Virus record (IMG/VR): IMGVR_UViG_3300042542_006078
DNA length: 64,000 nt
Source: a virus
Taxonomy: Duplodnaviria > Caudoviricetes
Strand: one strand, 5' to 3'
The translations under genes and the position numbers were made by a program. Shown in pieces: positions 36,248 to 43,482 of this stretch. The number at the start of each line of letters is the position of its first letter. The first letter of the stretch is position 1. The notes beneath the pieces are model-generated. The model was not told the origin of the DNA, searched no databases, and saw only the letters and a list, made by a program, of their open reading frames with translations.

Positions 36248-37300
36248 ATGAATAAGTTCAAAAGCTGGTTGTTAGATCGTGACACTAATCTTCTGGAAAC
36301 CATGTCCAGAGAAAAAATGATGGAAGATGATCTTGATGCCTTGAATTATGCAAAAAAGCAAAAAAGACAAGAAAAAGAACTTGATGAAAAAATTCGTATA
36401 ATTAAGTATCTTGCTAAAATTAAGAAAAAAATAGAACAATTCGTTGACGCACACGACAAAGGCGCTCAAGCTCTTAAGCTGATAGCAGCATCTTTGTTGA
36501 CTCACGAAAAGGGCAGAGAAGGCATTAAAACCCATGTTCGTCATGTTTATAGCAAGGATTTGAAAAGCCTCAAAGACTTGCAGAAGATTTTCACTCATGA
36601 AAACTTGATCAAGCTTTTCCACGATGTTGATGCTCTCCACTCTTTGAGCATGATATTGGATTCCGATTTTGAAAGTCATGTCGGCAATTTGGAAAAAGAT
36701 TCTCAACACGGTCATATTGATCATTCACATGGCGAGTTGGGCAAAAAATTTGCAAGTTTTGTTGTGAGCCATATCAAGCATGCTGCTGACGATGTTTTAG
36801 CATCATTCCTTCAAGATCATAATAAAGATGAAGGTCAAGACGACGATGTTCCTCAAGATCAGGAATCTGGCGATGAAGCCGTTCCAGATATGTCTGCTGA
36901 TGAAATGAATCCTGATATGGAAGTAGGCGGTTCAGCACAAGATGCAGGTCAAATGGGTCAGGATGCAGGTCAAATGGGCCAAGATGCAGGTCAAATGGGT
37001 CAGGATGCAGGTCAAATGGGTCAAGATGCAGGTCAAATGGGCCAAGATGCAGGCCAAATGGGTCAGGATGCAGGCCAAATGGGCCAAGATGCAGGCCAAA
37101 TGGGCCAAGATGCAGGCCAAATGGATCAGGATGCAGGCCAAATGGATCAGGATGGATCTTCAGAAGACAATGCTTTGATGCCACCTGTTGGTATGGCCGC
37201 TCCTCAAAGACCTGCTGGCGCAGAAGGTGCAGAAGGTGCAGAAGGTGCAGAAGGTGCAGAAGAAGATGAAACGCAAACAGCAGCAGCACCATCTGTGTAA
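36248..37300 (+). CDS. FxxW-leader protein with acidic low-complexity repeat tail
   Basis: MNKFKSWLLDRD after a GGAG RBS; (QDAGQM[G/D])x10 and (AEG)x4. Confidence 0.8.
   Translation: MNKFKSWLLDRDTNLLETMSREKMMEDDLDALNYAKKQKRQEKELDEKIRIIKYLAKIKKKIEQFVDAHDKGAQALKLIAASLLTHEKGREGIKTHVRHVYSKDLKSLKDLQKIFTHENLIKLFHDVDALHSLSMILDSDFESHVGNLEKDSQHGHIDHSHGELGKKFASFVVSHIKHAADDVLASFLQDHNKDEGQDDDVPQDQESGDEAVPDMSADEMNPDMEVGGSAQDAGQMGQDAGQMGQDAGQMGQDAGQMGQDAGQMGQDAGQMGQDAGQMGQDAGQMGQDAGQMDQDAGQMDQDGSSEDNALMPPVGMAAPQRPAGAEGAEGAEGAEGAEEDETQTAAAPSV
36938..37147 (+). repeat. 21-bp tandem repeat x10 (QDAGQMG)
   Basis: ca[a/g]gatgcagg[t/c]caaatgg[g/a][t/c]. Confidence 0.95.
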
Positions 37301-37321
37301 TTTGTGACATAAAGGAGAAAA

Positions 37322-37582
37322 ATGAAGGAACTACTCTATCTTTCTGGCGTTATCAATGAAAGCCAGTTTCATGAATCTAAGGGAAAAGATGGAATCAAGC
37401 ATTACATGTTTTTTTCCAATCTTAAAACAATCAAAGATATGGTTGATGAAATCTTAAAAATGGATCAAAAGATGATCGACAAATCTTTGGATGATGGACA
37501 TGATTGGGCTAGCGATCACATTACAAGCAGCAGGGACGACATTGAAGAAGTTCATAATTGGGTTAAAAGCAGAATAAAGTAG
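37322..37582 (+). CDS. Small phage protein with LSG..E leader
   Basis: MKELLYLSGVINESQFHE; YMFFSNL...GHDWASDHI; AAGGAG RBS. Confidence 0.75.
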   Translation: MKELLYLSGVINESQFHESKGKDGIKHYMFFSNLKTIKDMVDEILKMDQKMIDKSLDDGHDWASDHITSSRDDIEEVHNWVKSRIK

Positions 37583-37614
37583 TTGTGAAAAATGTCTCAT
37601 AACTATAACAATTT

Positions 37615-37750
37615 GTTGGTTGTTCCGATAATGGTAGTCGTTTTAGCACTTTCCTGACTCGGTATCGGTTTATGTGAGAGGCGAAGATTAAGTGCGCCAG
37701 CCACACAACAGCCAACTAAAACATCGCTCTAAAAAGAGCGATGTTTTTTT
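37615..37750 (+). ncRNA. Candidate pseudoknotted ncRNA or riboswitch-like leader with terminator
   Basis: P1 10 bp, P2 6+5 bp, P3 4+4 bp, loop-loop CACUU/AAGUG, then hairpin aaaacatcgctc-taaaaa-gagcgatgtttt with a T-tract. Confidence 0.55.
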
Positions 37751-37774
37751 ATGTCTTTTTTACTTTATTATGCC

Positions 37775-38707
37775 ATGAAAAAGAAAATTTTAATCACAGG
37801 TGTCACAGGAACAGTAGCCAAGTCATTCATAAAAGAATTTTATGATCATTATGAGTTTCACGGCATTTCAAGAAATGATTCATCACAACAGATATTATCA
37901 TATGATTTTCCAAAAGTGACTTGTTACTTGGGTGGAATTGATGATCAAAAATTCCTTTACGGTGTCTTTGAAAAAGTAAGACCAGACATTGTTGTTCATG
38001 CTGCCGCAATAAAACATGTTGACTTGGCAGAAGAAAATCCGATTCAAACTTGTGTGGTTAATTTGGATGGAAGCATTAATGTAATTGCCTCATCAATAAA
38101 ATATAATGTTCCTATTACAGTAGGAATTAGTACAGATAAGGCTTGCTCTCCAACAAATGTCTATGGAATGTCAAAATATTTGATGGAGAAGTGCTTTTTG
38201 TCGTCAAATGGTTATGAATCCAAGTTTTGTTGTACTCGTTTTGCGAATGTGGCAGGAAGCACAGGATCAGTCATACCGAAATGGGATGATATGAGAAAGA
38301 AGGGAATCCCTCTTACAGTTACAGATATGGACATGAGTAGACTCATGTTTTCTCCAAAAGAAGCTGCCGAATTGATACAAAAATCAATTAATTTGATGGA
38401 AAATGGACAATCAGCATTTATCCTCACAAAGAAAATGAAAACCGTGAAAATCTATGATTTAGCAAAATTTTTGTCAGATCAAGTTGTCGTCACAGGGATT
38501 AGACAAGGCGAAAAATTATACGAAAATTTGATTTCTGAAAAAGAAGTTTCTTACACAGAATTGATTGACAATGATTATGTAATTATCAGAAAAAATCAAA
38601 CCCCTGAAGGTAAAAGGGTTGATGGAGTTCTTAATTCAATGACTGCGGAATTGATGAATGAAGAACAAATCAAGGAATTACTAAATAATTGTGGTGTCAT
38701 CTTATGA
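37775..38707 (+). CDS. UDP-GlcNAc 4,6-dehydratase (PseB/FnlA/CapD-like, polysaccharide biosynthesis protein)
   Basis: ILITGVTGTV, VVHAAAIKHV, GISTDKACSPTNVYGMSK (YxxxK), TRFANVAGSTGSVIP, GIRQGEKLYE. Confidence 0.92.
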   Translation: MKKKILITGVTGTVAKSFIKEFYDHYEFHGISRNDSSQQILSYDFPKVTCYLGGIDDQKFLYGVFEKVRPDIVVHAAAIKHVDLAEENPIQTCVVNLDGSINVIASSIKYNVPITVGISTDKACSPTNVYGMSKYLMEKCFLSSNGYESKFCCTRFANVAGSTGSVIPKWDDMRKKGIPLTVTDMDMSRLMFSPKEAAELIQKSINLMENGQSAFILTKKMKTVKIYDLAKFLSDQVVVTGIRQGEKLYENLISEKEVSYTELIDNDYVIIRKNQTPEGKRVDGVLNSMTAELMNEEQIKELLNNCGVIL

Positions 38708-38716
38708 GGCAAAAAA

Positions 38717-39529
38717 ATGCAATTAGATAAATCGAAATTCCCAGAAGAAACCCATCAATTAATTGATTTGCTGGAAAGCTCCGAATGGCCAGAAGCAGTC
38801 CCAGATTTCCTTATTTGCAGCGAAACCGAGGAAGACAAGATTGAGAGGGCGATGGGTGTTGTCGAGTATATGAAATTTGATTTTGCAGGTAAAAAAATTC
38901 TTGATTACGGTTGTGGCGAGGGTCACCTTGCTATGGAAGTTGCAAATACAGCATCCACTGCTTCATGTGAAAAAAGTGTCGGATTTGACATAGTTCAGTC
39001 TGGTATTCATCAATGGGAAAAAGAAGATAGGTTCTTGTTGACAACTAGCTTTGATAAAGTCAAAGAAAATGGTCCTTATGATTTTGTTGTTTTATATGAT
39101 GTTTTAGATCATTGTGTTCAGCCTGTTGATGTGATGAGTAATATTATAAAAGTTTGCCACAAAGACACAAAGATTTTTGTCCGTTGTCATTCTTGGATGA
39201 GTAGGCATGGAGGTCATATTTATCGGCAACTCAACAAAGCATGGGCTCACCTCGTTTTCACTAAAGACGAGCTTTCTCTTATGGGAATTGATTTGCCATT
39301 CGTTTATAAGGTTTACACTCCTGTTCGCACACAATCATTGTGGTTTCAAGTTTTCAATTTACATGTAGAAAAACAAGATATAGTTAAAACCATTGTTGAA
39401 GATTTTTTCAAAAAACCAGAGATATCTGCTAGATTACCTTTGGCGAGATTTAACAACAAATTCCCAGAACACCAAATGGCGCAATCATTCAACGATTACT
39501 TTTTGAACACTCAATTTGCTATCCAATAG
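38717..39529 (+). CDS. Class I SAM-dependent methyltransferase
   Basis: ILDYGCGEG motif I; YDFVVLYDVLDH. Confidence 0.88.
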   Translation: MQLDKSKFPEETHQLIDLLESSEWPEAVPDFLICSETEEDKIERAMGVVEYMKFDFAGKKILDYGCGEGHLAMEVANTASTASCEKSVGFDIVQSGIHQWEKEDRFLLTTSFDKVKENGPYDFVVLYDVLDHCVQPVDVMSNIIKVCHKDTKIFVRCHSWMSRHGGHIYRQLNKAWAHLVFTKDELSLMGIDLPFVYKVYTPVRTQSLWFQVFNLHVEKQDIVKTIVEDFFKKPEISARLPLARFNNKFPEHQMAQSFNDYFLNTQFAIQ

Positions 39530-40344: not shown

Positions 40345-40417
40345 ATGGTGAAGGGAAACTGCTTCGGATTTCCGAGAAGCAAAGCCGATAATATGTTTGG
40401 TCGTCAGTCGCCGCCAT
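40345..40417 (+). promoter_or_regulatory. Riboswitch-like leader motif, copy 1
   Basis: aaactgcttcggatttccgagaagcaaagccgata, enclosed by AUGGUG/CGCCAU. Confidence 0.5.
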
Positions 40418-43300: not shown

Positions 43301-43482
43301 TCAAGATGACGGTGTGGATCAAAACTGCTTCGGAATCCCGAGAAGCAAAGCCGAATAGTAGTCATGAAGGTTGTCATCTTGATCAATGACGGATAATGAT
43401 GACAATCAAAACTGCTTCGGAATCCGAAGAAGCAAAGCCGATAACTAGTTGTGAGTGAAACTATCCGTCACAAGATGACGGA
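43301..43482 (+). promoter_or_regulatory. Tandem riboswitch-like leader motif, copies 2 and 3, upstream of the SNF2 helicase
   Basis: 35-nt core at 43322 and 43409, each enclosed by a long-range stem (43301-12/43371-82; 43387-95/43462-70). Confidence 0.55.

Follow-up and report, generated by a model that had tools for sequence, protein, structure and literature searches.

A conserved 102-nt core and the intrinsic terminator directly behind it form a putative small non-coding RNA gene of about 136 nt (37615–37750) in one clade of giant phages, a reading to which we assign a probability of roughly 45%. The element lies in the window analysed here, a 64,000-nt stretch of an uncultured giant freshwater (lake) phage (IMGVR_UViG_3300042542_006078), within a non-coding gap of 192 bases that separates the stop codon of an upstream gene, which encodes an 86-aa protein, from the first codon of a sugar dehydratase gene (Table 1). 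As judged from the comparison of lineages, strong purifying selection acts on the nucleotide sequence of the element, there is strong sequence evidence that the core and the terminator constitute a discrete functional unit, and the conserved core is probably a real small RNA. Most of the many unexplained intergenic islands of giant phages are indistinguishable from chance folds, and the comparison with silent sites shows that this one is selectively maintained.

The RNA would be transcribed from the + strand, which is favoured by the G.U pairs, by the direction of both flanking genes and by the run of seven U. Transcription would start from a weak -10-like box 5 nt upstream of the core or would reach it as the 3' end of the upstream operon, and the terminator of the element itself would set the RNA free. 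The RNA would then act through its invariant loops and junctions on a protein or RNA partner, and it would not be a metabolite sensor for the downstream sugar genes. Its function is probably either that of a small RNA or that of a cis-acting leader of the antitermination type.

Table 1 Features of the element and its surroundings (window coordinates)
Feature	Coordinates	Strand	Remarks
Upstream gene, 86-aa protein	37322..37582	+	stop codon 37580-82; widespread in huge phages
Variable upstream flank	37592..37614	+	TATAAC and ATG of a 21-codon ORF; 22–41% differing between lineages
RNA core, 102 nt	37615..37716	+	conservation and predicted fold
P1 closing stem	37615-24 with 37707-16	+	10 bp, one G.U
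P2 CCGAUA/UAUCGG	37625-30 with 37663-68	+	pairing in sequence
P2 AGUCG/UGACU	37636-40 with 37655-59	+	one G.U
P3 UGUG/CACA	37673-76 with 37702-05	+	pairing in sequence
P3 GGCG/CGCC	37680-83 with 37695-98	+	pairing in sequence
Hairpin loops	37641-54 and 37684-94	+	predicted fold
Complementary loop segments CACUU / AAGUG	37647-51 / 37690-94	+	5-bp Watson-Crick match
Intrinsic terminator	37718..37750 (hairpin 37718-47)	+	13-pair stem, core CAUCGCUCU/AGAGCGAUG, loop 4–6 nt, seven U
Variable spacer	37751..37774	+	17–46% differing, indels; second ATGTCT...ACT block
PseB/CapD/EpsC-type UDP-sugar 4,6-dehydratase	37775-38707	+	downstream gene
SAM-dependent methyltransferase	38717-39529	+	3' of dehydratase

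Nucleotide-level conservation of the core and terminator

Four diverged lineages within the phage clade of the window carry the element; they were reached through proteins that fall into the same 90% clusters as proteins of the window. Their dehydratases are 99% (L075), 96% (L072/L073) and 91% (L074) identical to that of the window, and the fourth lineage (L076/L077) has an 86-aa protein of 92% identity. The core differs from that of the window at 2 of its 102 positions in L072, 6 in L074, 7 in L076 and 8 in L077, as compared with 9%, 43%, 52% and 59%, respectively, of the fourfold-degenerate sites of the flanking genes (Fisher p 0.025, 2e-10, 2e-9 and 3e-14). The sequence-only reading had proposed an unannotated, discrete and functional non-coding element at this place, and the proposal is borne out by a block that is bounded by P1, ends in a terminator and has a core differing by 2–8% versus 9–59% at fourfold sites, with a non-coding pattern of change. 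The rate of change in the core equals that of codon positions 1 and 2 (about 5% differing). Because the variable positions of the core fall in all three phases and fit no frame on either strand, the constraint acts on nucleotides.

The edges of the conserved block coincide with the first and the last base of P1. In L074, L076 and L077, the 32 bases upstream of the core differ by 22–41%, including an 11-nt deletion, with blocks ATGT and ACTA kept between lineages, and the 24 bases 3' of the U run differ by 17–46%, with indels. The 5-nt linker between P1 and the terminator differs at three of its five positions in L076 and L077, the most diverged lineages. Within the core, ten positions vary, and they sit in P1 and in the predicted internal loops: 6 of the 14 predicted internal-loop positions are variable versus 4 of the 88 others (p 3e-4; post hoc test), and none of the 30 hairpin-loop and junction positions is. 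Viewed post hoc, this is the pattern to be expected if, in the modelled fold, the loops and junctions carry the function.

The terminator is conserved as well. Its hairpin begins one base after the core and has an energy of -17.4 kcal/mol, with five G-C among 13 pairs followed by seven U, in agreement with the strong terminator described earlier directly after P1, and it ranks in the top three of the terminator-like sites within the surrounding 16 kb. The combination of a GC-rich hairpin and an immediate U run identifies it as an intrinsic terminator, and it is kept in all lineages, with 0–1 differences at the 18 stem positions and none at 6 positions of the U run; the loop and the 5-nt linker vary. 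The core and this terminator always occur together, and relatives without the core have a different terminator.

The terminator loop (37731–37735) and its surroundings read CTCT-AAAAA-GAGC in the window and in L074 and CTCT-TTTTA-GAGC in L055, L056, L072 and L075, and the loops of L076 and L077 are different again. In L055 (2957–2961) and L056, those four loop bases are the only differences in 501 nt. Such a terminator-loop difference between near-identical strains is a loop flip inside a palindromic stem.

Predicted fold and searches for known RNA families

The pairings of P1, P2 and P3, the loops and the TATAAC hexamer named in the sequence-only reading are all present in the sequence. The minimum-free-energy fold of 37615–37716 is a three-way junction of -28.9 kcal/mol, which is also the consensus fold across lineages. 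This fold is not clearly above chance because its z is -1.76, with 8 of 200 shuffles as stable, because 15.5% of the phage's own 102-nt windows with matching GC content are as stable or more so, and because 20% of shuffles of both loops produce a loop–loop Watson-Crick match of at least 5 bp. A z of -4.2 for the whole stretch is attributable to the terminator, and the z-scores of the orthologues are only -0.2 to -0.7. It is thus conservation, not the folding statistics, that lifts the element above chance. The kissing loop proposed earlier is affected in the same manner: the 5-bp complementarity between the two loops exists, but it stays at the chance level just given. Both candidate loops are invariant in all lineages. 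The core is also a GC island, with a GC content of 0.48 versus a window mean of 0.36, which places it in the top 5.6% of windows.

In the models, P1 is the sole helix that is robustly predicted in all lineages (pair probability 0.85–0.99 in every one), and the interior is ambiguous between a three-way junction and a rod. The rod-like alternative (18–21/86–89 and 23–32/74–84, core numbering) lies within 1–3 kcal/mol in all lineages, and L076 and L077 have a minimum-energy fold other than the three-way junction. Positions 21/86, found as U.G, as C-G (L075) and as U-A (L076), suit the rod-like alternative. Compensatory double changes are found in none of the 29 pairs, of which 24 are invariant, so little divergence being available. 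One-sided changes keep the pairing in the cases of U6C, A96G and C83U and break proposed pairs in the cases of U9G, A96U and C83A. The three pair-breaking substitutions, the lack of compensatory change and the instability of the interior fold in L076 and L077 count against a small RNA gene.

The claim that the element is novel, outside known families, agrees with Rfam 15, which has no match at gathering thresholds in the whole window. At E values up to 10 on 37500–37850, Rfam lists only terminator look-alikes, with 10–23 bits versus thresholds of 40–380. In the same region and at the same limit, the ribozyme, wcaG, manA and epsC/EAR models give no match, and the purine and lysine riboswitch models (RF00167/RF00168) are unlisted. 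The earlier suggestion of a ribozyme therefore finds no matching model, and the suggested likeness to purine and lysine riboswitches finds support neither in sequence nor in models. ARAGORN reports no tRNA or tmRNA. Near and distant similarity searches of GenBank phages with the region found nothing, and no similar sequence came up with blastn, nhmmer or tblastx in the 50 loci that surround homologues of the 86-aa gene. A single-sequence covariance model (R1) of the core finds one copy in the window and six copies of the same clade among 73 loci; it finds none in 15 related huge-phage records (about 3.4 Mb, with five near-complete genomes of 265–460 kb), which include the 80-kb sister contig. 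No copy turned up when viral contigs were scanned with exact and with degenerate patterns, or when genome contigs were scanned with a degenerate one. By these comparisons the element would be a new RNA family, so far of one clade only and without covariation support.

The terminator appears to work apart from this fold. In transcripts truncated before the 3' arm of the hairpin, the core fold is kept and the 5' arm of the terminator is unpaired. P1 and the terminator do not overlap, and the best upstream duplex of the 5' arm has -7.8 kcal/mol, which 55% of shuffles equal. Because the 5' arm is free in truncated transcripts and has no antiterminator pairing, the terminator is independent of the core fold, and the attenuator proposed in the sequence-only reading is not supported. 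This independence, together with the lack of Rfam support, makes a classical riboswitch or attenuator unlikely.

Gene context in phages with and without the element

The upstream operon consists of the genes for a 356-aa and the 86-aa protein. The latter protein contains the motifs HYMFFSNLK and GHDWASDHI..SRDDIEEVHNW and falls in no Pfam or PHROG family; one homologue carries the label YktB/UPF0637-like in one source. Its homologues occur in at least 50 huge-phage contigs with quite different gene neighbourhoods. In the 50 homologous loci compared (IMG/VR huge phages), no other neighbour gene is common with the window, and the gaps 3' of the gene are short or AT-rich, without similar sequence. 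The operon 3' of the terminator has two genes only, those for the dehydratase and the methyltransferase, and is followed by a convergent gene. Translated from ATG 37775, the dehydratase (P0121) starts with MKKKILITG. The start is usually called at ATG 37751, but L074 does not keep this codon in frame, and the true start is therefore 37775. An ORF whose end overlaps the dehydratase start as ATGA was discarded, its length not being conserved (28, 13, 14 and 6 codons).

An identical dehydratase protein is found on a contig of 434,573 bases, and near-complete related genomes measure 265–460 kb. The sister contig (G001, 80 kb) is 100% identical to the window up to position 36994, where it ends. The stretch is present in 19 lake DNA runs from 15 studies, and there is no variant within 37600–37750 in the three lake DNA runs examined. 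The single RNA run yields one 261-nt contig of low depth inside the upstream ORF (37302–37562), which is uninformative on expression of the element either way. Contigs from lake DNA runs break repeatedly within 36983–37260, the 3' part of the 356-aa gene, whose product has a weakly tail-fibre-like C-terminus, and run X17 has small deletions of 1, 2 and 18 nt there. This segment appears to vary from strain to strain.

A protein search with the dehydratase led to syntenic relatives of 68–73% identity, which fall into three groups. In L066–L070, the order of a 332–380-aa gene, a 90-aa gene, the dehydratase and methyltransferase genes, a reverse-strand gene and a sigma-like gene matches that of the window. 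In these relatives, the gap ahead of the dehydratase gene is only 77 nt long and contains a terminator hairpin unlike that of the window, a run of T, AACTATAAT or AACTCTAAT, a clear Shine-Dalgarno sequence and the ATG. In L071, an ORF of 109 aa, whose product is a membrane protein with weak likeness to EamA, fills the gap, and L078–L080 have no dehydratase gene, so that the 109-aa ORF abuts the methyltransferase gene. The slot is thus filled differently in different lineages, and the element does not accompany the sugar genes as a conserved partner. Consistently, L066–L071 carry the dehydratase–methyltransferase pair of 68–73% identity without the element. The RNA is therefore not a conserved regulator of this pair. 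It occupies a slot whose cargo varies between lineages, just ahead of genes with a probable role in modifying a sugar on the phage or on the host surface.

The product of the 109-aa ORF (L071:3662–3991; L078:2758–3087; L080:513–842) is a four-helix membrane protein with an EamA E value of 0.009. The ATG of this ORF overlaps the preceding stop codon in L071, where the gene caller missed the ORF and called a reverse-strand ORF instead. The element was also considered as a decayed remnant of the L071 ORF and rejected, there being no nucleotide similarity (shuffle p 0.4); a translated match of 12 residues to the ORF lies in T-rich sequence and in an inconsistent frame.

Possible modes of action

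Phages are known to encode small stable RNAs that end in an intrinsic terminator of their own, the species 1 and 2 RNAs of T4 being an example. Those mapped in transcriptomes of Pseudomonas phages (PMC10914365, PMC8244752) are, like the element, short, GC-richer, structured and intergenic, end in a hairpin and a U run, are confined to a narrow phage lineage and have not been assigned a function. The element differs from them in that its sequence matches none of theirs and in that it is known here from DNA sequence alone. As a narrow-range orphan RNA candidate, it is worth cataloguing and not surprising. If the small RNA acts in trans, it would give a handle on phage–host RNA regulation in an uncultured system. 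Complements of its loops are no commoner in the 64-kb window than in shuffles.

That the downstream gene has no Shine-Dalgarno sequence and, after the terminator, no recognisable promoter is as compatible with a cis-acting role as with a small RNA gene. Somewhat unlikely, in our estimate, is a cis-acting leader of the dehydratase–methyltransferase pair, in which the nascent RNA acts on the polymerase in the manner of put, EAR and canT or recruits a factor, so that only transcripts with a correctly folded core pass the terminator and express the sugar genes. The order of a -10-like box, a structured RNA, a strong terminator and the genes speaks for a leader, as does the absence of any Shine-Dalgarno sequence or recognisable promoter in the 24 nt between the terminator and the dehydratase ATG. 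Furthermore, the dehydratase gene has lost its Shine-Dalgarno sequence and any recognisable promoter after the terminator in all lineages with the RNA module, whereas relatives without the RNA keep both, with a clear Shine-Dalgarno sequence (GAGAGGTGA or AAGAGGTAA; L066:3975–4003, L069:3975–4003). The box before the core (AACTATAAC) resembles AACTATAAT ahead of the dehydratase Shine-Dalgarno sequence in relatives without the RNA, suggesting that the module sits 3' of an old dehydratase promoter; however, a similarity of 9 nt could be due to chance in AT-rich DNA.

By its sequence, the -10-like hexamer TATAAC (37604–09), 5 nt before P1, would act as the promoter. It resembles the TATAAT ahead of the dehydratase Shine-Dalgarno sequence in relatives without the RNA. 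Other lineages have TACAAC or TATTAT in its place; in two of three lineages the box ends without the usual T, and it is accompanied by no conserved -35 element. A sigma28-like phage promoter motif is absent at the element and occurs in the window at 40356–90 and twice in 43320–43444; CCGATAA inside P2 was set aside as a chance match to this motif.

In Bacillus, EAR precedes the gene for an EpsC-type sugar dehydratase, which is the kind of gene that stands behind the element. The RNAs put (HK022), EAR (Bacillus, epsC motif RF01735), canT (Tn916) and conAn2 (pLS20) likewise are structured RNAs directly before an intrinsic terminator and genes (PMC11658703, PMC2864571), the epsC motif being described in PMC2864571. 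Because RNAs of the put/EAR/canT type work without an alternative antiterminator hairpin (PMC11658703), the missing antiterminator is not an argument against a leader. However, the epsC/EAR model does not match the element, and the operon behind the terminator ends after two genes at a convergent gene. The likeness to these RNAs is one of gene order only. Transcripts of the upstream operon also carry the core, and the terminator would therefore not insulate the sugar genes from them. Moreover, relatives express the same genes without such an RNA. By analogy with these systems, the core may be imagined as a new class of cis-acting RNA that reprograms the host- or phage-encoded polymerase to read past the strong terminator and so gates a sugar-modification cassette, with the near-isoenergetic three-way and rod-like folds as its on and off states, which we regard as unlikely. 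If action in cis on the terminator is true, a phage example would be added to the very small set of RNA-only antitermination systems.

Because no terminator lies between the stop codon of the 86-aa gene (37580–82) and the core, transcripts from upstream must enter the core. This, the weakness of the -10-like box and the shortened flank of L076/L077, where the core begins 22 nt after the stop codon, would suit a 3'-UTR element of the upstream operon that protects its mRNA from 3' exonucleases or gives rise to a 3'-UTR-derived small RNA. We consider such an element doubtful, since the 50 homologues of the 86-aa gene and the nearest relatives, L066–L071, have nothing of the kind after the gene, and a plain stabiliser would not require 30 invariant loop and junction positions.

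P1 can equally be read as a terminal inverted repeat with 9 of 10 positions matching, and the element could act at the DNA level, as a site of protein binding or recombination or as the trace left by a small insertion bounded by 10-bp terminal inverted repeats. What fills the slot differs from lineage to lineage, an RNA fold is not proved by covariation, and two ATGTCT...ACT blocks 159 nt apart, the only such matches in the window, flank the module. However, this is very unlikely because the element is single-copy in the window and absent from the 80-kb sister contig and the related records, its near-uniform constraint over 102 bp far exceeds that of usual binding sites, its variable sites coincide with internal loops of the RNA model, and the linked, conserved terminator points to a transcript. 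A mobile element or miniature inverted repeat, which would be present in multiple dispersed copies with target-site duplication, was rejected on the ground of the single copy.

The two blocks consist of ATGTCT, 4–5 bases and ACT and lie at 37592–37605 and 37751–37765. As the pattern ATGTYT-N4-5-ACTW has only these two matches in the 64-kb window, both at the flanks of the module, it was dismissed as a general promoter class. Both blocks resemble the segment of T run and AACTATAAT after the terminator of L066, and they may have arisen by duplication of a promoter segment or may mark an insertion.

It is highly improbable that the element is a riboswitch in which a purine-like three-way junction, held by kissing of loops 2 and 3, senses a ligand and controls the terminator. 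The consensus three-way fold, the invariance of loops and junctions as in aptamers, and the position before a terminator and sugar-nucleotide genes are what such a riboswitch would show. Precedent exists in cyanophages, since wcaG (RF01761) and manA (RF01745) are candidate cis-regulatory RNAs of large phages before sugar or exopolysaccharide genes (PMC2864571). However, those RNAs are widespread and have covariation support, whereas the element occurs in one clade without covariation and matches neither model. On paper, the purine riboswitch (RF00167) likewise has a three-way junction and two hairpins with loops able to pair; the element differs from it in having junction strands of 0, 4 and 1 nt (or 2, 4 and 3 nt) without purine-class signatures, helices interrupted by internal loops, loops of 14 and 11 nt, and no expression platform. 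The Rfam riboswitch models give no match at E up to 10, no antiterminator is available, P1 stays clear of the terminator, and the kissing match is at chance level. In addition, the interior fold is unstable in L076 and L077, and the element is missing from relatives with the same genes and from the 15 related phage records.

A gene for a hydrophobic peptide of 21 aa (MSHNYNNLLVVPIMVVVLALS, 37592–37657), translationally coupled to the 86-aa gene, is hardly credible: its ATG, frame, length and stop codon are kept in all lineages and in L076/L077 its ATG overlaps the upstream stop codon as TAATG, but it has no Shine-Dalgarno site, it spans only 43 of the 102 conserved bases, its changes are non-synonymous (S2F, H3R/F, N4Y, N6Y, L8K, V10A, V11G, M14V and V15A/L) with two synonymous ones only, all five changes inside the core fall on codon positions 1 or 2, and codons 12–21 have no synonymous change versus 43–59% at silent sites elsewhere. 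In terms of its sequence, the 21-codon ORF may be translated as a by-product, or its translation may be used to unfold P1 and P2.
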